A stretch of DNA of 64,000 nt from assembly GCA_945285405.1 (NCBI GenBank), contig CALYQJ010000003.1, forward strand, positions 2,761-66,760, read 5' to 3'. Under the pieces are notes generated by a model. That model was not told the origin of the DNA. It did not search any database and saw only the letters and a program-made list of their open reading frames with translations. This document shows positions 3,616 through 62,487 of this stretch, piece after piece. The translations under genes and the position numbers were made by a program. This DNA comes from an uncultured Lactobacillaceae bacterium. Its GTDB lineage: Bacteria > Bacillota > Bacilli > Lactobacillales > Lactobacillaceae. Numbering within the stretch: position 1 is the stretch's first letter; each line of letters starts with the position of its first letter.

Positions 3616-6452
3616 ACTTTTTCCTTTTTTAAAATTTCGGCTAAATAATGACCAGTGTAAGATTTAGGTGATTTAGCTACTTCTTCAGGTGTGCCACTAG
3701 CAACAATTTGACCACCCTTATCTCCACCTTCAGGTCCTAAATCAATAATATAATCTGCTGATTTAATTACATCAAGATTATGCTCAATAATAACTATTGT
3801 ATTACCCTGATCAACCAAGCGATTAAGGACATTTAATAAACGAGAAATATCGTCAGTATGTAACCCTGTTGTTGGTTCATCCAATATATAAAAGTTATGG
3901 CCACTGGACTTCTTTTGTAACTCTGAAGCTAATTTCATTCGTTGAGCTTCTCCCCCGGATAAATCTAAAGCACTTTGTCCTAATTTTAAATATCCCAAAC
4001 CTACATCTACAATAGTTTGTAACTTTCTTTTTATTTTTTGATGATTTTTAAAAAATTCTAAAGCTTCTTCTACTCGCATTTCTAAAACATCGTAAATATT
4101 TTTTCCTTTATACTCTACTTCTAAAGTTTCAGAATTATAGCGGCGTCCATGACAAACATCACATTTTACAAAAACATCAGGAAGAAAATTCATTTCAATT
4201 TTTATAATTCCGTCTCCACGACAAGCTTCGCATCGTCCACCTTTAGTATTAAAACTGAATCTTCCTTTTTTGTATCCCCTTACTTTAGCATCATTCGTTT
4301 GGGCAAATAATTCTCGAATATCGTCAAATACTCCTGTATAAGTAGCTGGGTTAGAACGTGGTGTTCGGCCAATAGGGCTTTGATCAATATTAATAATTTT
4401 TTCAATTCCACTCATTCCCGAAAGTTGCTTAAATGGCTCAGGTTTCGAGGTTGAAAGATGAAGATATTGACGCATTGCTCGTTTTAGAGTTCCATTAATT
4501 AAAGTCGACTTCCCCGAACCAGAAACTCCCGTAACTAAAACTAATTCACCTCTTGGTATAGTTACTGTTAAATTTTTTAAATTATGACCACATGCTCCTG
4601 TAATTTTAATTTGTTTTCCATCCCCTTTACGACGTTTTTGAGGTAAAGGAATAACTTTTTTTCCTGATAAATATTGTCCAGTTAATGAATTAGGATTCTT
4701 TTCAACTTCTTCTGGAGTTCCAGCAGCTACGATTTGGCCACCTTGATCACCAGCTCCTGGACCAATATCAACTAAATAATCGGCAGCTAACATTGTTTCT
4801 TCATCATGTTCAACAACTACTAAAGTATTCCCCAAATCTCGCATTTCCTTTAGTGAAGTAATTAAACGGGCATTATCGCGTTGATGTAATCCAATTGATG
4901 GTTCATCTAAAATATATAAAACTCCAGATAAATTAGAACCAATTTGAGTTGCTAAACGAATTCGTTGAGCTTCTCCACCTGATAGAGTTCCAGCAGCGCG
5001 ACTTAAAGAAAGATAATCCAATCCAACATTAATTAAGAAAGTTAACCGGTCAATAACTTCCTTTAATATCGGTTTAGCTATGGTCATTTCTTTTTTTGTA
5101 AGCTTTAAACTTTGAAAGAACTTTAATTCATTTTTTATTGGTAAATCACAAATTTCAGCAATATTTTTACCCATAATTTTAATAGCCAAAGCTTTCCGAT
5201 TTAAGCGAGCCCCATGGCAAGTAGCACAAACAATTTCATCCATATAACCGTACATTACTGAGCGTACAAAATCACTATTAGTTTCATGATAGCGCCGATT
5301 AATATTATTCATCACTCCTTCAAAAACATATTTGCCATCACTAACTTTGCCAAATTCATTAACAAAATGAAATGGAAATTTTTTACCCTGTGAACCGAGT
5401 AAAACCAAGTCTTGATCTTTTTTTGGTAATTTTTCAAAGGGCACATTACGATCAATACCAAAATAATCACATGCTTGATTTAGCATTTCTGGATAATATC
5501 GACTAGTAATTGGATTCCAGGGAACAACTGCACCTTCGTTTATAGTTTTGTGTCGATCTGGAATTACTAAATCGGGATCCACTTGCAACTGAATTCCTAA
5601 ACCATCACACGTTTCACAAGCACCAAAAGGTGCATTAAAAGATAAAAGTCGTGGTTCAATTTCACCAACAGTAAAGCCACAAATTGGACATGCATAGTGT
5701 TCAGAGAAAATTAAAGGATCTGAACCAATTACATCAACATTAACATACCCTTCTGCTAGTCTTAGTGCTGATTCCATTGAATCAAAAAGCCGACTTTTAA
5801 TCCCATCTTTAATTACAATTCGATCAACAACAACTGAAATATCATGTTTTTTATTCTTATTCAAGTTAAGTTCATCAGCTATATCATGGATTTCACCATC
5901 GACCATTATTCGGACATAGCCTTCTTTTTTGATTCGATCTAATACTTTCTGATGTTGACCTCTTTTTTGACGTACCATCGGACTTAAAATCTGAATTCTT
6001 TGACCCCCTGGTAAATTTAGAATTCGATTAACCATTTGTTCAACTGATTGACTAGTAATTTCTGTACCATCATTTGGACAAATTGGATGACCTACTCGAG
6101 CCCATAATAGTCTTAAATAATCATTGATTTCAGTCACCGTTCCAACAGTTGAACGAGGATTTTTAGAAGTAGTTTTTTGATCTATTGATATTGCTGGTGA
6201 AAGGCCATCAATACTATCCACATCAGGCTTTTCAATTTTACCTAAAAATTGTCGAGCATAGCTTGACAAGCTTTCAACATAACGTCGCCGTCCTTCAGCA
6301 TATAAAGTGTCAAAAGCTAATGAACTTTTTCCAGATCCAGAAAGTCCAGTAAACACGACTAAAGAATTTTTAGGAATCTTTAAATTCACATTTTTTAAAT
6401 TATTTTCTCGTGCCCCTCGAATAATAATATCTTTTTGTTCCCAATGTGCCAT
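3612..6452 (-). CDS. uvrA: Excinuclease ABC subunit A
   Basis: Two ABC ATPase modules (GLSGSGKS, GVSGSGKS, LSGGEAQR twice) and CxxC zinc fingers. Confidence 0.98.
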   Translation of the reverse strand: MAHWEQKDIIIRGARENNLKNVNLKIPKNSLVVFTGLSGSGKSSLAFDTLYAEGRRRYVESLSSYARQFLGKIEKPDVDSIDGLSPAISIDQKTTSKNPRSTVGTVTEINDYLRLLWARVGHPICPNDGTEITSQSVEQMVNRILNLPGGQRIQILSPMVRQKRGQHQKVLDRIKKEGYVRIMVDGEIHDIADELNLNKNKKHDISVVVDRIVIKDGIKSRLFDSMESALRLAEGYVNVDVIGSDPLIFSEHYACPICGFTVGEIEPRLLSFNAPFGACETCDGLGIQLQVDPDLVIPDRHKTINEGAVVPWNPITSRYYPEMLNQACDYFGIDRNVPFEKLPKKDQDLVLLGSQGKKFPFHFVNEFGKVSDGKYVFEGVMNNINRRYHETNSDFVRSVMYGYMDEIVCATCHGARLNRKALAIKIMGKNIAEICDLPIKNELKFFQSLKLTKKEMTIAKPILKEVIDRLTFLINVGLDYLSLSRAAGTLSGGEAQRIRLATQIGSNLSGVLYILDEPSIGLHQRDNARLITSLKEMRDLGNTLVVVEHDEETMLAADYLVDIGPGAGDQGGQIVAAGTPEEVEKNPNSLTGQYLSGKKVIPLPQKRRKGDGKQIKITGACGHNLKNLTVTIPRGELVLVTGVSGSGKSTLINGTLKRAMRQYLHLSTSKPEPFKQLSGMSGIEKIINIDQSPIGRTPRSNPATYTGVFDDIRELFAQTNDAKVRGYKKGRFSFNTKGGRCEACRGDGIIKIEMNFLPDVFVKCDVCHGRRYNSETLEVEYKGKNIYDVLEMRVEEALEFFKNHQKIKRKLQTIVDVGLGYLKLGQSALDLSGGEAQRMKLASELQKKSSGHNFYILDEPTTGLHTDDISRLLNVLNRLVDQGNTIVIIEHNLDVIKSADYIIDLGPEGGDKGGQIVASGTPEEVAKSPKSYTGHYLAEILKKEKV

Positions 6453-57647: not shown

Positions 57648-59459
57648 ATGAATAAAAATACAAGTGTGCCGCCACGTGAATTGGTAGATCCAAAAGAAAC
57701 GTGGGATCTAACTCCACTCTGTAAAGATAATGAAGACTTTCAAAAACGTTTAGCAGATTCTAAAAAACAGGTGCAACATTTTTGCGAAATGTACCAAAAT
57801 AAAAAATTTAATTTAAGTCAAATTGGGCAACTTTTAAAAGATTACAATAAATTATTTAAAGATTTGCTTCCTTTAATTGACTATGGCTTTTTGGTTAGTA
57901 CCACTGACTTAACTAATGCCGAGAATAATCAAATTACTTTTCAAAGTGAAAATTTTTATTCTGAATTTTCCGCTCAAACTAAATTTGTTGAAGATGATTT
58001 ATTAGCCTTAACAACTGAAGAAATAAAACAACTTCAAAAAGATTTACCTCAATTTACTGGTTATCTGAGAAAAATTAAAAAGTATAAAAAAATTGCTTTA
58101 AATCCTGAAGTTGAACATGTTCTTACCAAATTAGAACCTACTTTTAATTCATACAGTAATATCTACGGACAGATTCGTTCAGCAGACCTTCACTTTTCCC
58201 AATTTTCAGCCAATGGTCAAACCTATCCTTTATCTTTCAGTCTTTATGAAGATCGCTATTCTTATGATCCCGACCCAGAAATTAGACGCAATGCTTTTGC
58301 TAAATTTTCTGAAGAATTATCTCATCATCAAAATGCTGCTGCTGCAAATTATCTGGCTCAAGTCTCTAATGAAAAAAGATTAGCCGATTTACATGGCTTT
58401 GATTCAGTGATCGATTACCTCCTATTTGATCAAGAGGTTGACAGACCTTTATTTAATCGCCAAATTGATTTGATCATAGAAAAATTTGGTCCCATAATGC
58501 AAAAATATTTAAAATTTGTTGCCCAAGAACGCGGATTAGATAAAATGACCTTTGCAGATCGCTTAATTGATTTAGATCCGAAATATGCACCCAAAGTAAG
58601 TATTGCTGATTCCAAAAAATTCATTAAGGATGCTATAGCAACCTTAGGAGATGATTATCAAAAGATGATCATGCCAGCATTTGAAGAACGTTGGGTTGAT
58701 TTTGCTCAAAATCAAGGAAAAGAAACTGGCGGGTTTTGTTTGCAGCCATATGAAACTCACCCTTATATCTTATTAACCTGGCAAGACGGATTAGCTGATG
58801 TTTATACTTTAATTCATGAATTAGGACATGCCGGGCAAGGAATTCTTTGTACACAAAATCATCCAGTTTTAGAGACAGACTCTTCAACTTATTTAATTGA
58901 AGCGCCTTCAACTTTTAATGAGCTTTTATTGACTGACTCTCTGGAAAATAAAGCTAAAGATCCACGGCAGAAGCGTTTTGCTTTATCTAAAATGTTAACT
59001 AATACATATTTTCATAATTTTATTACTCACTTACTAGAAGCAGCTTATCAACGTGAAGTTTATCGTTTAATTGATGCCGGTAAAAGTTTTAATGCCGATA
59101 AATTAAATGAAATTACTAAACAAGTTTATTCAGAATTTTTTGGTGATGCCTTAGAATTAAACCCTGGTAGTGAATTAACTTGGATGCGACAATCTCATTA
59201 TTATATGGGCCTTTACAGTTACACTTATTCAGCAAGTTTAACGATTGCTACCCAAGCATTTTTAAATGTTAAAAAATTTGGACAACCAGCGATCGAAAAA
59301 TGGCTTGACTTTTTAAAATTAGGTAACAGTAAAGATCCGGTTGCTGCTGCTGCAACCGCTGGAGTAGATATCAATAGTGATCAACCTTTACTTAATACAA
59401 TTAATTACCTTGACCAAACCGTAAATCAAATTATTGCATTAACAAAGGAAATAAAATAA
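57648..59459 (+). CDS. pepF: Oligoendopeptidase F (M3B)
   Basis: ETWDL, TLIHELGHAGQ zinc motif, EAPSTFNE and HYYMGLYSYTY; AAGGAG RBS. Confidence 0.93.
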   Translation: MNKNTSVPPRELVDPKETWDLTPLCKDNEDFQKRLADSKKQVQHFCEMYQNKKFNLSQIGQLLKDYNKLFKDLLPLIDYGFLVSTTDLTNAENNQITFQSENFYSEFSAQTKFVEDDLLALTTEEIKQLQKDLPQFTGYLRKIKKYKKIALNPEVEHVLTKLEPTFNSYSNIYGQIRSADLHFSQFSANGQTYPLSFSLYEDRYSYDPDPEIRRNAFAKFSEELSHHQNAAAANYLAQVSNEKRLADLHGFDSVIDYLLFDQEVDRPLFNRQIDLIIEKFGPIMQKYLKFVAQERGLDKMTFADRLIDLDPKYAPKVSIADSKKFIKDAIATLGDDYQKMIMPAFEERWVDFAQNQGKETGGFCLQPYETHPYILLTWQDGLADVYTLIHELGHAGQGILCTQNHPVLETDSSTYLIEAPSTFNELLLTDSLENKAKDPRQKRFALSKMLTNTYFHNFITHLLEAAYQREVYRLIDAGKSFNADKLNEITKQVYSEFFGDALELNPGSELTWMRQSHYYMGLYSYTYSASLTIATQAFLNVKKFGQPAIEKWLDFLKLGNSKDPVAAAATAGVDINSDQPLLNTINYLDQTVNQIIALTKEIK

Positions 59460-59484
59460 AAAACAGGTAATTACTGTTTTTTTT
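59458..59484 (+). terminator. Terminator of pepF
   Basis: AAAAAACAG-N7-CTGTTTTTTTT. Confidence 0.6.
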
Positions 59485-59647
59485 ACACAAAACACCCAAT
59501 TATAAAAAGTATTATTTTTTATAATTAATACTGAGAAAATATTTTTTTAATATTTCTTTTCGCCTTTAAATTATTTTTAATTATTAAAAAATTAGCCTAA
59601 AAAAAGATATTTTTTTTTAAAAATAAATGTAATCTTTATGATTTTTT

Positions 59648-59680
59648 TGCTATAATAAAATACAAAAATAAGATAGGAGG
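59648..59680 (+). promoter_or_regulatory. Extended -10 promoter and SD of the BlaI-like cassette
   Basis: TG-C-TATAAT at 59648-59656 and AGGAGG at 59675-59680. Confidence 0.7.
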
Positions 59681-59688
59681 GTTTTTCT

Positions 59689-60021
59689 GTAAAAAAATTA
59701 ACTTACAATGAAAGGCAAGTAATGAATATTTTATGGACAATTAATCAGCCATCTTCAATCAAAGTAATAGGCCACTTTTTATTAAAATATAAGCGAAATA
59801 GAATAAACTTTATTTTAAATAGTCTTTTAGATAAAGGACTGATTACTGTACTAGAAACTAAAAAGGGATCAGTTTGGGTACAACTATATGAACCAATAAT
59901 TACTGCCGAAGAATATTACTATTCACTTATTCCACACGAATATTTAGAATTTTTAATTTCCCATTTTATTAATACAAGTGAAGATATAGAGGATATAAAT
60001 GAAGCAAAAAAATACAATTAA
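59689..60021 (+). CDS. BlaI/MecI/CopY family winged-helix repressor; start codon reads GTA, so possibly a pseudogene
   Basis: In-frame (V)KKLTYNERQVMNILW 8 nt after AGGAGG, plus LNSLLDKGLI and YEPIITAEEY, which are typical of the family. Confidence 0.75.
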   Translation, partial: VKKLTYNERQVMNILWTINQPSSIKVIGHFLLKYKRNRINFILNSLLDKGLITVLETKKGSVWVQLYEPIITAEEYYYSLIPHEYLEFLISHFINTSEDIEDINEAKKYN

Positions 60022-60086
60022 TTTTTCTAGTAAATTTAAACTAGAAGATTCCCAAAATTATCGTATTGGAATTTATAATTAGTCAA

Positions 60087-61235
60087 ATGAAATTTTCAAT
60101 TGCCTCGTTATTTATTTCACTATGTCTGGCTTCAGTATTAATTATATTACTCAGACTATTTTTATCACATAAATTAACGTACAAGCAGTTCAGAATTGAC
60201 TTTTTATCAATTTTTAGTCTTATTATTACATTACGGTTATTGTTACCTTTTGAATTTGCAAATACACAAACGGTCGCATCTCAATACATCCTACCTGCAA
60301 TTTATTCTGTGGGTAAAATTGATCTGATAAATACTTCTTTAAAATTAACACTTGGTAAAATTTTACTAGCGATTTGGATCTGTGGAAGTATAATTTCATT
60401 AATCCATTTTTTAAAAAGTAAGTATCTCTTAAGAAACTTTACGCATTCCCTTGTTAAGTTGCCAGAGAACTATCTTGATCAAAGTGTAAGAGAAATGATC
60501 CCCCAAAAAATCAAACTGTATTATTCTAAATTACCAAATTCTCCATATACATTTGGCGTAGTGAGGCCTGGTATTGTCTTTTCAAATTTAAAGTTGAGTG
60601 TTGATGATCAAAGATTTATTGTCGGTCATGAACTTGAACATATTCGACGCCATGATAATTTAAAGAAATATGTCATTGAAATTCTAGTCTGTATTTACTG
60701 GTGGTATCCTTTAATTTATTTGTTCCGACGTGAAGTTAATTCGATAATCGAAATTAATATTGATTATCAAATGATAAAAAACAAAAATAGTAAAATCTAT
60801 TTCGATTATACAGAATGCCTAATTAAAATAGCTAAGCAATTAAAGAATTTTACATATCATTCTAAGCTTCAAAAAGAGATTTATAAAAATTCTAATTTAT
60901 CTAATTTTGTGCTTTTTCAAGAAAATACTTTAACCAGAAGAATTAACTTTTTATTAGAAGAATACCCGGTCAAACAAACTTCTTGGGTTTTAAAAATTTT
61001 ACTTGTACTTTTACCGCTAATTATTACTTCAGTTATTATTGAGCCGTACTACGATAAAACCAATTTGACTGAGGGAACTTTTAAATTAAGTGATAATAAA
61101 AGGGATAATTTTATATTAAAAATGAATAATAATTATTATTTAATAATTAAAGGAAAGAATTTAGGCAAAATTAAAAATTATTCACCTGGAAAAGATACTA
61201 ATTTAAAACATTTACCAATAAAAGAAAAAAAATAA
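60087..61235 (+). CDS. M56 family (BlaR1/MecR1-like) membrane metallopeptidase lacking a penicillin-binding domain
   Basis: LRLLLPF, SPYTFG...PGIV, HELEHIRRHD, WWYPLIY, EINID, LTRRINFLL and four TM segments. Start is ATG 60087 or TTG 60066. Confidence 0.9.
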   Translation: MKFSIASLFISLCLASVLIILLRLFLSHKLTYKQFRIDFLSIFSLIITLRLLLPFEFANTQTVASQYILPAIYSVGKIDLINTSLKLTLGKILLAIWICGSIISLIHFLKSKYLLRNFTHSLVKLPENYLDQSVREMIPQKIKLYYSKLPNSPYTFGVVRPGIVFSNLKLSVDDQRFIVGHELEHIRRHDNLKKYVIEILVCIYWWYPLIYLFRREVNSIIEINIDYQMIKNKNSKIYFDYTECLIKIAKQLKNFTYHSKLQKEIYKNSNLSNFVLFQENTLTRRINFLLEEYPVKQTSWVLKILLVLLPLIITSVIIEPYYDKTNLTEGTFKLSDNKRDNFILKMNNNYYLIIKGKNLGKIKNYSPGKDTNLKHLPIKEKK

Positions 61236-61250
61236 GGAGATAAAATAATT

Positions 61251-61478
61251 ATGAGAAAAAAGATTACCAAATTTTTATTACTATTTGCTTTAGTTACACC
61301 TTTCGCTGTTAATACTGCAACTGTTAACGCAGCAACAACTTTTGAAACTGACAATCCAAAACTTGAGCCACTGAGACCAATAATTGAATATCGTTATAAA
61401 CTTGTAAAAGGATATTTATACCGTCGTTTATATGATGCAACTAATGATAAATGGCTTGGACCTTGGGAAAAAATTTAA
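61251..61478 (+). CDS. Small secreted Tyr/Trp-rich peptide (75 aa precursor)
   Basis: AAGGAG RBS, Sec signal MRKKITKFLLLFALVTPFAVNTATVNA, followed by a terminator. Confidence 0.85.
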   Translation: MRKKITKFLLLFALVTPFAVNTATVNAATTFETDNPKLEPLRPIIEYRYKLVKGYLYRRLYDATNDKWLGPWEKI

Positions 61479-61502
61479 TGGATAAATAATTATTTCTAAT
61501 GT

Positions 61503-61537
61503 AAAAAGTTCTTAATCAGACGGTTAAGAATTTTTTT
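61503..61537 (+). terminator. Terminator of the BlaI-M56-peptide cassette
   Basis: AAAAAGTTCTTAATC-AGAC-GGTTAAGAATTTTTTT. Confidence 0.8.
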
Positions 61538-61544
61538 ATAATTG

Positions 61545-61580
61545 AAAACAAAAAAACGCAGAATTGCGTTTTTTTGTTTT
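61545..61580 (-). terminator. Terminator of the aldo/keto reductase gene
   Basis: AAAACAAAAAAACGCA-GAAT-TGCGTTTTTTTGTTTT. Confidence 0.8.
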
Positions 61581-61599
61581 ATCTATATCTATATCAATA

Positions 61600-62487
61600 C
61601 TAAAGAAACGGAATTGGTTTTACAAAATCAAAATTATCTGGATCTTCATGTTGGGCTGTCTTCCCGGCTAAAGAGTTTAATTTCTCATGATCTGCATCAG
61701 TTAATTCAAAATCAAAAACTTGCGCATTTTCCTGAATATACTTTTCATGAGTTGATTTAGGAAGCGGTACAAAATCCGATTCTAAACTCCAACGTATTAA
61801 AACTTGAGCTATTGATTTATGATGTTCTTTAGCAATTTCTTCAATAATTGGTTGGTGCAATAAATTGCCAGTACCTAAAGGGGAATAAGCTTCTGTTAAA
61901 ATTTTTAAACTTTGATTGTATTTTACTAACTCTGGTTGCGGATCACCAGGATTAAGGAAAATTTGATTTACCATTGGTGTAATTTCCCATGTCTTTTGCA
62001 ACTCTTTAATATGCTTAGGTTGGAAATTACTAATACCAATTGCTTTTGCTTTGCCTGAACGATAAATTTCTTCCATAGCTCGCCACGTATCAGCATTAAT
62101 TTTTTGCCAACGATCACGATATTCGGTCGGTACTGGCCAATGAATTAAATATAAATCAACATAATCTAACTGCAAACGAGTTAAAGAATCCTGAAAAGCT
62201 TGTAAAACATGGTCATAGCTATCTCTTTGTGAATTCCAAAGTTTAGTAGTAACAAATAGCTGATCGCGATCAATTCCTGAATCTTTAATCGCTAAACCAA
62301 CTGATTTTTCATTACCATAAGTCGCCGCTGTATCAATATGACGATATCCCGCTTTTAAAGCCCATTTTACGGCATCATAAGCTTCATCGCCATCTTTTGA
62401 CTGCCAAGTTCCAAAACCAATGACTGGTATCTTTACCCCATTTGCCAATTCTTTAGTATCGGTTAATGAGTTTGCTTCTATTTTCAT
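61600..62487 (-). CDS. Aldo/keto reductase (AKR5, 2,5-DKG reductase-like)
   Basis: GFGTWQ, GYRHIDTAATY, FVTTKLWN, DLYLIHWP and PLPKS. Start refined to ATG 62487 after GGAGG. Confidence 0.93.
   Translation of the reverse strand: MKIEANSLTDTKELANGVKIPVIGFGTWQSKDGDEAYDAVKWALKAGYRHIDTAATYGNEKSVGLAIKDSGIDRDQLFVTTKLWNSQRDSYDHVLQAFQDSLTRLQLDYVDLYLIHWPVPTEYRDRWQKINADTWRAMEEIYRSGKAKAIGISNFQPKHIKELQKTWEITPMVNQIFLNPGDPQPELVKYNQSLKILTEAYSPLGTGNLLHQPIIEEIAKEHHKSIAQVLIRWSLESDFVPLPKSTHEKYIQENAQVFDFELTDADHEKLNSLAGKTAQHEDPDNFDFVKPIPFL

Follow-up and report, generated by a model that had tools for sequence, protein, structure and literature searches.

The window, a 64,000-nt stretch of DNA from an uncultured Lactobacillaceae bacterium of the bee gut, carries a cassette of three genes bordered by the terminators of pepF and of an aldo/keto-reductase gene. 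As had been read from the bare letters in a preliminary description, its three co-oriented open reading frames (ORFs) encode a BlaI-family repressor, an M56 protease and a 75-aa protein with a signal peptide, which we call the miniprotein. The features of the cassette, in window coordinates, are:

59648..59656, + strand: extended -10 element TGcTATAAT with a poor -35, kept in sister strains (sequence reading)
59675..59707, + strand: AGGAGG Shine-Dalgarno, then the N-terminal codons of the ancestral blaI from GTA on; overlaps the palindrome TGTAA-N10-TTACA (59688-59707)
59722..60021, + strand: gene for a BlaI/MecI/CopY-family winged-helix repressor, 99 aa from the first ATG (PF03965; alignment with relatives)
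60087..61235 (alternative TTG start 60066), + strand: gene for an M56 (BlaR1-type) membrane zinc metalloprotease, 382 aa (PF05569)
61041..61232, + strand: C-terminal tail of M56 outside the cell (residues 319-382), a predicted three-stranded beta mini-domain, hypervariable between strains (AF2 strands 341-346, 349-354 and 357-362)
61060..61560, no strand: hypervariable allelic block of M56 tail, peptide gene and terminator (identity of sister strains L003 and L009 0.28-0.75 inside, 0.99-1.00 on both sides)
61234..61239, + strand: AAGGAG ribosome-binding site of the peptide gene, overlapping the M56 stop codon (sequence reading)
61251..61478, + strand: gene for the 75-aa secreted miniprotein, with signal peptide (61251-61331), variable spacer and conserved beta core (residues 41-75; 61371-61475)
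61505..61537, + strand: intrinsic terminator of the cassette, after the peptide gene (folding of 61498-61540: about 13-15 paired bases, then a U-run; -13 kcal/mol, z -5.8)

The layout proposed earlier was confirmed in its main lines. The cassette is AT-rich, with a GC content of 0.20-0.30 over 59400-61600 against 0.32-0.36 in the flanks. The extended -10 promoter is present, and is missing from the output of a consensus promoter scan because its -35 is poor. The terminators are hairpins with a U-run: that of pepF folds at -7.4 kcal/mol (z -3.3), that after the peptide gene has the values listed above, and a further, bidirectional one is shared with the reductase gene (z -5.7). Contigs of RNA-seq libraries (4 runs from two studies) begin at 59668-59679, just 3' of the -10, and the same comparison of library contigs found no cover over 59400-59630; these contig starts give a weak hint of a transcript start just 3' of the -10. 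Contigs from insect-gut RNA libraries lie over all three genes, with the gene junctions not bridged; a single contig does connect the M56 tail with the peptide gene, from a run that is guessed to be RNA. All three ORFs are intact, with dN/dS values of 0.2-0.28 against sister strains, and the cassette is under purifying selection. As also claimed before, a Pfam search found no transpeptidase or beta-lactamase domain in it; the five PF00905 genes of the genome are all on other contigs.

The first gene is a BlaI/MecI repressor, as it scores 27.3 bits with the Penicillinase_R model PF03965 (cut-off 22.6) over residues 5-79 of a 110-aa reading of the frame from 59689. Its dN/dS against sister strains is 0.23-0.25. 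In an alignment with 10 relatives, the stretch 59689-59721 matches the ancestral blaI N-terminus residue for residue, the alignment having a near-invariant T5 and an invariant E8 and W16. The first codon there, behind the AGGAGG, is GTA (59689), which is not a standard start and is also present in the sister strains L003, L009 and L025. The in-frame ATG at 59722, with a Shine-Dalgarno-like GAAAGG site, leads to the 99-aa product, and gene callers annotate the equivalent product in relatives. The window's BlaI further has a divergent recognition helix and a short C-terminus: the position of ..HFI.. is kept, matching the N|F cleavage region, and the protein ends about 10-20 residues before its relatives (119-136 aa). 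With no canonical ancestral start and a short C-terminus, this blaI could be a weak allele.

The palindrome TGTAA-N10-TTACA is at most a weak operator candidate. It was found twice against 0.88 expected in a window so rich in AT, which is not above chance; similar palindromes lie upstream of blaI in L028, L030 and L033. The upstream AT-rich inverted repeats are many and indistinguishable from chance, and were rejected as operators.

The second gene encodes a four-TM M56 zinc protease, as previously described (Peptidase_M56, PF05569, 99.4 bits against a cut-off of 31). Its HELEH motif (60627-60641) is followed by a conserved Glu in IIEINID, and H181, E182, H185 and E222 are invariant in the alignment. 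The AF2 model (pLDDT 78.7) consists of four long helices and a protease core, and the top PDB matches are cryo-EM structures of S. aureus BlaR1, 8EXS by structure (E 3.6e-7) and 8EXP by sequence (E 2.3e-10). The NCBIfam BlaR1 equivalog model NF000326 scores only 61.9 against its cut-off of 400, and no PF00905 match was found by Pfam, about 60 residues following TM4. The protease had been called sensor-less; this is correct for the penicillin-binding domain but not overall, since the roughly 60 aa after TM4 form a conserved beta-rich ectodomain. The modelled topology is that of BlaR1, with all parts past TM4 predicted outside the cell. The tail is not put forward as a vestige of the BlaR1 sensor domain, whose last beta-strands its profile touched at an insignificant -1.7 and -2.9 bits. 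A profile-profile comparison of tail and miniprotein core gave a probability of 0.6%; the two are therefore not paralogues.

The third gene product was rightly described as a Sec-type secreted peptide, for it begins with a classical n/h/c signal peptide ending in VNA|A (sequence reading); it has no lipobox because it has no Cys. AF2 models residues 41-75 with a pLDDT of 97-98 as a three-stranded beta-sheet (strands 45-52, 55-62 and 67-74), and the mature core reads as cationic (net charge about +4), with a high content of Trp and Tyr. Fold searches with this model yielded a best Foldseek E of 1.4 and no VIA-align match with Z>=2, the sheet being too small to classify. No Pfam or NCBIfam model, bacteriocin models included, matched the miniprotein at E<=0.1. 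Its family is nevertheless large, comprising 839 clusters at 50% identity (E<=1e-3); it has no name in Pfam or NCBIfam and is new here. Seven core positions (K, G, Y, R, W, G, W) are invariant in alignments of 13 to 137 members, and dN/dS is 0.07-0.20; this conservation suggests that the core has kept a binding function.

The miniprotein gene is strictly linked to the protease gene. Each homologue that we found comes immediately after an M56 gene preceded by blaI, which is the recurrent synteny that the preliminary description had asked for; the independent lineages that show it number about 20 and range from Lactobacillaceae to Enterococcaceae and Erysipelotrichaceae. In the lineages examined we found no peptide gene away from M56, either alone or with another regulator. 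All 10 peptide-positive genomes among 401 Lactobacillaceae fall within the 12 genomes that have this M56 subfamily. In most loci the end of the M56 gene overlaps the start of the peptide gene or comes within a few nt of it (up to about 45 nt in one), and abutting or overlapping genes are the usual arrangement for co-produced partners. The linkage is looser from the side of the protease: of the 18 M56 copies in this subfamily, 7 stand without a peptide gene, so the protease-repressor pair can persist without it, and two genomes have none at all. In G187 a decayed remnant of the peptide gene follows one M56 copy, a second possible remnant resting on by-eye similarity only. The sister lineage L006 has lost blaI, its M56 and peptide genes still adjoining. 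Fused M56-plus-peptide proteins were absent from 8000 long candidates, which is weak evidence.

Tail and peptide gene make up a single allelic block, old and strongly divergent, that starts about 10 codons past TM4 and extends through the peptide gene. Three species-level groups of bee-gut lactobacilli, with two different chromosomal sites between them, show an almost constant M56 body next to a hypervariable ectodomain of about 60 aa; among 15 proteins whose first ~320 columns hardly vary, there are at least 4 types of tail. Between L003 and L009, dN is 0.41 and dS 0.74 in the tail against 0.004 and 0.025 in the M56 body, and dS in the peptide gene is about 1.9. B. mellifer, with five alleles and the cassette at the other chromosomal site, repeats the pattern: pS is 0.53 (tail), 0.375 (peptide core), 0.055 (M56 body) and 0.033 (blaI).

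Covariation of peptide and protease had been put forward as a sign of a ligand-receptor pair. Within species, ectodomain and peptide gene do vary as one hypervariable block; across lineages, peptide distance does not follow tail distance when the M56 body is taken into account. A partial Mantel test over 25 pairs, controlled for the M56 body, gave a peptide-tail partial r of 0.05 (p 0.29), and one representative per lineage gave r 0.12 (p 0.14). Physical linkage alone could explain the co-inheritance within species. Moreover, the peptide core differs far less than the tail between alleles, so that tail diversity may have another driver and the peptide gene may have hitchhiked as a linked neighbour. 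A predicted complex of full-length M56 with the 40-aa core scored 0.21 (mark 0.32); the tool gave no call, and we count this result for neither side.

The reading that we tentatively prefer, at a little short of an even chance, is that the miniprotein is an extracellular partner of the M56 ectodomain, acting either as its ligand or as a detached co-sensor. The suggestion that the peptide is a ligand thus gains from the strict linkage and the allelic block; the deep covariation that it might have left behind was not found. A strict pair of ligand and receptor is also opposed by the M56 copies that have no peptide gene and by the noncanonical ancestral start of the window's blaI. On this partner reading the system would be a three-component proteolytic switch of the BlaI/BlaR type. 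A sigma-A promoter with the extended -10 would drive blaI, M56 and the miniprotein gene as a single unit, and a BlaI-like dimer would repress this promoter through a putative operator and probably act on further targets. M56 would be a four-TM protease with its gluzincin site (HELEH plus Glu) in the cytoplasm and its L2 loop and beta tail of about 60 aa facing outward. The miniprotein, presumably exported by Sec and cut after VNA, would fold into its 35-residue three-stranded sheet and bind the M56 ectodomain, as a self-made ligand or in place of the BlaR1 penicillin-binding domain. Its binding state would then set the activity of M56 on BlaI, by activation or by inhibition of a presumed cleavage, and with it the expression of the operon in a feedback loop, and the allelic block of tail and miniprotein would confer strain specificity. 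A true pherotype system, in which a strain's own folded miniprotein is recognised by its own M56 ectodomain and so triggers or blocks BlaI cleavage, we consider unlikely.

The miniprotein might instead be the output of the switch, an exported envelope-acting or surface cargo whose level is set by BlaI, with the M56 tail sensing an unrelated cue from outside or from the envelope; we regard this as a serious possibility, if a rather doubtful one. It follows the logic of CenI/CenR of C. difficile, a non-canonical BlaIR system in which CenI imposes an approximately 500-fold repression on CDR_0474, a small exported protein whose gene is 215 bp downstream of cenIR (Kurtz et al., J Bacteriol 2026, PMC13492132). 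The penicillin-binding domain is missing from most M56 proteins, and from about 94% of annotated BlaR-like proteases (PMC13492132). An output role would also fit the BlaI-M56 pairs of this subfamily that persist without a peptide gene, the missing deep covariation of peptide and tail in the partial Mantel tests, and a diversity peak that lies in the tail and not in the peptide. However, CDR_0474 has a promoter region of its own, whereas in most lineages of the present family the peptide ORF adjoins the sensor gene or runs into it, so that the peptide would be made whenever the sensor is made. Nor was the peptide found alone or with other regulators, and a sheet of 35 residues that has an invariant aromatic and basic surface but no catalytic features is more probably a binding module than an effector. 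The regulated effector of the preliminary description is therefore still a live rival on the CenI precedent; its antimicrobial version found no match among the bacteriocin models of Pfam and NCBIfam.

That antimicrobial version, a Sec-dependent bacteriocin-like antagonist of rival strains with the hypervariable M56 tail as the determinant of self-protection or self-recognition, would account for the diversification at strain level, and seems to us quite improbable. The cationic, Trp/Tyr-rich mature core would suit it, as would alleles of tail plus peptide that look old and balanced, like those of toxin-immunity cassettes; in the same genome, a paralogous blaI-M56 pair without the peptide adjoins a weak lactococcin-972-like gene (TIGR01653, E 0.0018, below cut-off). 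Yet the miniprotein has no hydrophobic or amphipathic membrane-active segment, its core is strongly kept across bacterial families, unlike fast-evolving toxins, and the cassette includes no dedicated immunity or ABC transporter gene. An immunity role for an M56 protease is not known to us from the literature. That the cassette of this genome is a decaying remnant without regulatory function is very improbable. The nonstandard ancestral start of blaI, its short C-terminus and divergent recognition helix, the absence of blaI in the L006 lineage and the low GC all point that way, but the three ORFs are intact at the dN/dS of 0.2-0.28 given above, the ATG with its GAAAGG site provides a 99-aa product that gene callers annotate in relatives, the catalytic residues of M56 are in place, and RNA-library contigs cover all three genes.

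With this subfamily, sensor-less BlaR-like proteases gain a tangible candidate for their missing input or partner, one that is itself genetically encoded. Because the tail and the small protein vary sharply between near-identical strains, the small protein can be tested as a candidate for the cue that such switches detect, and the natural allele series of ectodomain plus miniprotein, set in otherwise identical backgrounds of bee-gut lactobacilli, amounts to ready-made swap experiments. A specific signal and receptor would represent a new transduction chemistry for bacterial cell-cell recognition, with a bearing on the coexistence of strains in the honey-bee gut. Should the cassette prove a true pherotype system, it would be a strain-specific circuit for self-recognition or quorum sensing that works through repressor proteolysis and not through a kinase or RRNPP receptor, and would give the large sensor-less BlaR class its first natural protein ligand. 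If the miniprotein is cargo, the CenIR paradigm would be extended to a widespread conserved effector.

Literature searches on this triad, on M56 with pheromones and on BlaR in bee lactobacilli returned nothing relevant beyond the CenIR paper. By the definition given there the cassette is a non-canonical (CenIR-like) BlaIR system, a blaI-like gene with an adjoining M56 gene that has no transpeptidase domain (PMC13492132). It shares with CenIR the BlaI-family repressor, an M56 protease without a transpeptidase sensor, a small signal-peptide protein encoded downstream and the absence of a beta-lactamase. CDR_0474, however, is a repressed target of 136 aa, restricted to C. difficile and encoded 215 bp away, whereas the protein here has 75 aa, belongs to a family of 839 clusters from several Bacillota families and is encoded by a gene that abuts or overlaps the protease gene in most loci. 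CenR has a long tail, disordered for the most part; the tail here is a compact beta mini-domain, hypervariable between strains.

With BlaI/BlaR1 and MecI/MecR1 of S. aureus and Bacillus licheniformis the cassette has in common the repressor family, the four-TM gluzincin fold (8EXS as top match) and the blaI/blaR-like gene order, and from this common order we presume a common mechanism of repressor proteolysis. Unlike BlaR1 and MecR1, the protease here has no class-D-like penicillin-binding domain; there is also no bla or mec target gene, and a secreted third component is added.

Comparison with agrBDCA of staphylococci and comCDE of streptococci brings out differences in both receptor and signal. 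The receptor there is a histidine kinase, whereas here it would be a membrane protease cutting a repressor. The candidate signal is a folded, Sec-exported miniprotein of 35-48 aa, where theirs is a short modified peptide; it has a core far more conserved than pheromones are, and its specific activation of the receptor is putative. The hypervariable regions of agr and comCD consist of the signal gene and the sensor part of the receptor gene. The cassette resembles these systems in that a gene for a secreted peptide adjoins that for a membrane receptor, and in that an old hypervariable block takes in the peptide gene and the sensor-encoding part of the receptor gene alone, the rest of the locus being conserved.

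The cassette lies between pepF and a convergent aldo/keto reductase gene, with these coordinates in the window:

57648-59459, pepF (Peptidase_M3), the upstream neighbour of the cassette
59460-61540, cassette region, with three ORFs that all share one orientation
59648-59656, extended -10 element TGcTATAAT, read from the sequence
61549-61575, perfect hairpin, extended by 12 A/U-rich base pairs and bordered by A-runs and T-runs, between the cassette and the reductase gene

The preliminary description had placed three co-oriented genes behind one extended -10 promoter, in an AT-rich stretch bounded by terminators. This architecture was borne out: an ORF and domain search recovered the three genes, the promoter element is present, and GC content is 0.20-0.30 across the stretch versus 0.32-0.36 in the flanks. 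Three hairpin-plus-U terminators fold well below shuffled controls, after pepF (z = -3.3), after the peptide gene (z = -5.8) and before the reductase gene (z = -5.7). The hairpin at 61549-61575 appears to be a bidirectional terminator common to the cassette and the convergent gene.

The first ORF encodes a BlaI/MecI/CopY-family repressor (PF03965; 27.3 bits, cut-off 22.6) and the second an M56 protease (PF05569, 99.4 bits), with its HELEH motif at 60627-60641 and the conserved Glu 37 residues further on. An AF2 model of the protease (pLDDT 78.7) has four long membrane helices and the protease core. Among PDB entries the protease is matched best by the BlaR1 cryo-EM structures from S. aureus (E = 3.6e-7 with Foldseek; E = 2.3e-10 with a profile spanning residues 9-311). 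No transpeptidase domain was found in the protein; past the last membrane helix there are only about 60 residues, for which the AF2 model shows three short beta-strands, and the protein reaches 61.9 with the NCBIfam BlaR1 equivalog model, whose cut-off is 400. The cassette belongs to the broad non-canonical BlaIR class, outside BlaR1/MecR1 proper. A profile of the extracellular tail (residues 319-382; 61041-61232) could be aligned to residues 498-579 of BlaR1 (8EXP), the last strands of its penicillin sensor, at insignificant scores of -1.7 and -2.9 bits; the pattern in this insignificant alignment, Y-[VI]-[IL]-x...K-Y-Y-[FL]...D-G-K-x-x-G, may have arisen by chance or be left over from a lost sensor.

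The third ORF (61251-61478) encodes a 75-residue miniprotein with a standard signal peptide ending VNA|A, and has no match in Pfam or NCBIfam. A word-based search retrieved four close clusters only. Run against 1.84 billion representatives, a profile built from its last 40 residues matched 839 proteins at E<=1e-3, of which 293 reach E<=1e-10; nearly all are 46-114 residues long and carry the domain at the extreme C-terminus. The approximate consensus is D-I-I-x-W-R-Y-K-x-x-N-G-x-x-Y-K-R-x-Y-N-x-[ST]-x-x-x-W-I-G-x-W, with K, G, Y, R, W, G and W as its invariant or nearly invariant positions. Residues 41-75 are modelled by AF2 (137-sequence alignment) as a three-stranded antiparallel sheet at pLDDT 97-98; no convincingly similar solved structure was found, and its neighbours in the ESM Atlas are all "hypothetical protein" clusters from Bacillota. 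The family is large and has no name.

The recurrence of blaI-M56-peptide synteny, proposed as a check on the cassette, was confirmed. The peptide profile clearly matched 10 of 401 Lactobacillaceae genomes, each time with an M56 gene directly upstream on the same strand and blaI before it. Two further matches (L022 and L023) were discarded, being weak, unmatched by the peptide-core profile and without an M56 gene nearby. The triad is found in the named species Bombilactobacillus mellifer, B. bombi, B. apium and Lacticaseibacillus manihotivorans, and outside the family in a Vagococcus MAG, an Erysipelotrichaceae isolate and Enterococcus columbae. The four distant members of the family picked from the profile search each directly follow an M56 gene, preceded in three by Penicillinase_R (the fourth contig ends within the M56 gene). 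So do the three further matches in a phylum-wide sample, where the flanks are too short to tell whether blaI comes before. In most cases the M56 and peptide ORFs overlap by 4-14 nt or the peptide ORF begins 1-15 nt downstream of the M56 ORF; one locus has a gap of about 45 nt. One distant triad (L037) has a 78-residue fragment with a weak transpeptidase match upstream (946-1182) and, convergently downstream, a 726-residue protein with PG_binding and CHAP (peptidoglycan hydrolase) domains (3916-6096), neighbours that hint at a cell-wall context, as in CenIR.

From the peptide's side, then, linkage to M56 is absolute; from the protease's side it is looser. The M56 subfamily occurs in 12 of the 401 genomes as 18 copies, 11 of them with the peptide gene, and two genomes carry it without an intact one. 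In genome G187, a decayed remnant (L069:2632-2820, minus-strand frame; core motif broken, profile E = 7e-4) follows an intact M56 gene, and a possible second, behind the other M56 copy (L065:2654-2827), was judged only by eye from similarity to a relative's signal peptide. This suggests that the third gene was lost more than once. M56-BlaI pairs that persist without a peptide gene show the miniprotein to be dispensable for protease and repressor.

The closest named record by M56 is an uncultured Lactobacillaceae MAG (90% identity), others being MAG proteins labelled B. mellifer by NCBI, and samples containing the cassette are insect (bee) gut metagenomes; the source is therefore a bee-gut lactobacillus close to Bombilactobacillus. 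Its assembly (1.57 Mb, 32 contigs) has five PF03965 genes above the family cut-off and one below, and only two M56 genes. Besides the two copies paired with M56 there are three or four more PF03965 genes, on contigs C11, C13, C16 and C24; the strongest (105 bits, C11) is probably CopY, and the others without an M56 partner are orphan repressors. The second blaI-M56 pair (108 and 389 residues, the latter 45% identical) lies on contig C26 (L002:344-2646), with no peptide gene downstream. Divergently upstream of it are a gene for a 77-residue signal-peptide protein and the start of a membrane protein gene; the former matches lactococcin-972 weakly and below threshold (TIGR01653, E = 0.0018), and the locus may be one for a bacteriocin controlled by BlaI/M56.

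Comparison of two near-identical sister strains (L003 and L009) revealed a hypervariable block. They are 99-100% identical in pepF, blaI, M56 residues 1-322 and the reductase gene (dS 0.01-0.025), whereas identity is 28-75% in a stretch that begins some 10 codons past TM4 and continues over the peptide gene to its terminator (tail dN 0.41 and dS 0.74; peptide dS about 1.9). Among 15 M56 proteins of one 90%-identity cluster, the first ~320 columns are nearly invariant and there are at least four tail types; going by contigs in common and neighbouring accession numbers, each goes with a distinct peptide allele. The tail is equally hypervariable at the protein level in a more distant sister lineage (L006 type), while the outward loop L2 is invariant within species and highly conserved throughout the subfamily. 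In B. mellifer proper, where the cassette sits at another chromosomal site, between deoR and suf genes, nucleotide diversity rises from about 0.01 in the flanks to 0.07-0.12 in the peptide gene and 0.18-0.24 in the tail. There pS reaches 0.53 for the tail and 0.375 for the peptide core, compared with 0.055 for the M56 body and 0.033 for blaI. Since dN/dS is below 1 everywhere (tail 0.3-0.56, peptide core 0.07-0.2), the alleles are old and have been retained or exchanged in one piece, rather than being the product of rapid recent change.

RNA-seq libraries made from insect-gut metagenomes (three runs, two studies) yielded contigs over blaI, M56 and the peptide core; none of the contigs from these confirmed RNA runs spans a gene junction of the cassette. 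Those covering blaI begin at 59668-59679, 12-23 nt past the -10 box, with nothing upstream (the three RNA runs and a fourth whose RNA origin is a guess), which hints weakly that a transcript starts there.

The agr and com pherotype loci are marked by a polymorphic block that takes in a secreted-peptide gene and, of the neighbouring receptor gene, only the part encoding the sensor. The cassette block likewise consists of the peptide gene and only the outward part of the M56 gene, which supports a ligand-receptor relationship. We tentatively favour the miniprotein as an extracellular partner, either ligand or detached co-sensor, of the M56 ectodomain. What sensor-less BlaR proteins sense becomes directly testable here through natural allele swaps. 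The preliminary proposal of a ligand-receptor pair is partly supported: the allelic block within species speaks for it, deep covariation does not. Variation is far greater in the tail than in the peptide core. Over 25 pairs of tail and peptide, distances between peptides did not track those between tails once the M56 body was controlled for (partial r = 0.05, p = 0.29). Peptide distance instead tracks the body (partial r = 0.54), probably reflecting plain phylogeny. Because tail and peptide parts lie only a few hundred bases apart, linkage alone could account for their co-inheritance. That the miniprotein is cargo, in a CenIR-like role, is a possible though doubtful alternative; a bacteriocin-like antagonist we consider improbable.

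Very unlikely is that the cassette is in decay, for which the oddities of the repressor gene have to be weighed. Its earliest standard start, ATG 59722, gives 99 residues; the 11 open codons before it (59689-59721) match the N-terminal residues of ten relatives position by position, retaining a near-invariant Thr and an invariant Glu, and lie 8 nt past a perfect AGGAGG, the first codon being GTA, also in sister strains. Either translation begins at a non-standard codon, or the protein starts at Met12 without half of helix 1. Aligned with relatives, the protein is 10-20 residues shorter at the C-terminus, and its recognition helix lacks the usual S-x-N-T-[VI]-Q signature. Despite these oddities blaI is under purifying selection (dN/dS 0.23-0.25). 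The L006 lineage has lost blaI: pepF and the M56 gene are separated there by 475 bp devoid of ORFs (L006:3360-3834), and the M56 and peptide genes remain intact and adjacent.

Among described systems CenIR of C. difficile comes closest. It pairs a BlaI-like repressor with an M56 protease that has no penicillin-binding domain, and its chief target is a small exported protein whose gene lies 215 bp downstream (PMC13492132); the transpeptidase domain is present in only about 6% of roughly 15,000 M56 proteins (PMC13492132). Both systems combine such a repressor and protease with a downstream gene for a small exported protein. However, the third gene of the cassette comes from a widespread conserved family, whereas that of CenIR is species-specific; it abuts or overlaps the protease gene at most loci, whereas that of CenIR stands apart; and in the cassette the ectodomain-plus-peptide block is allelic.
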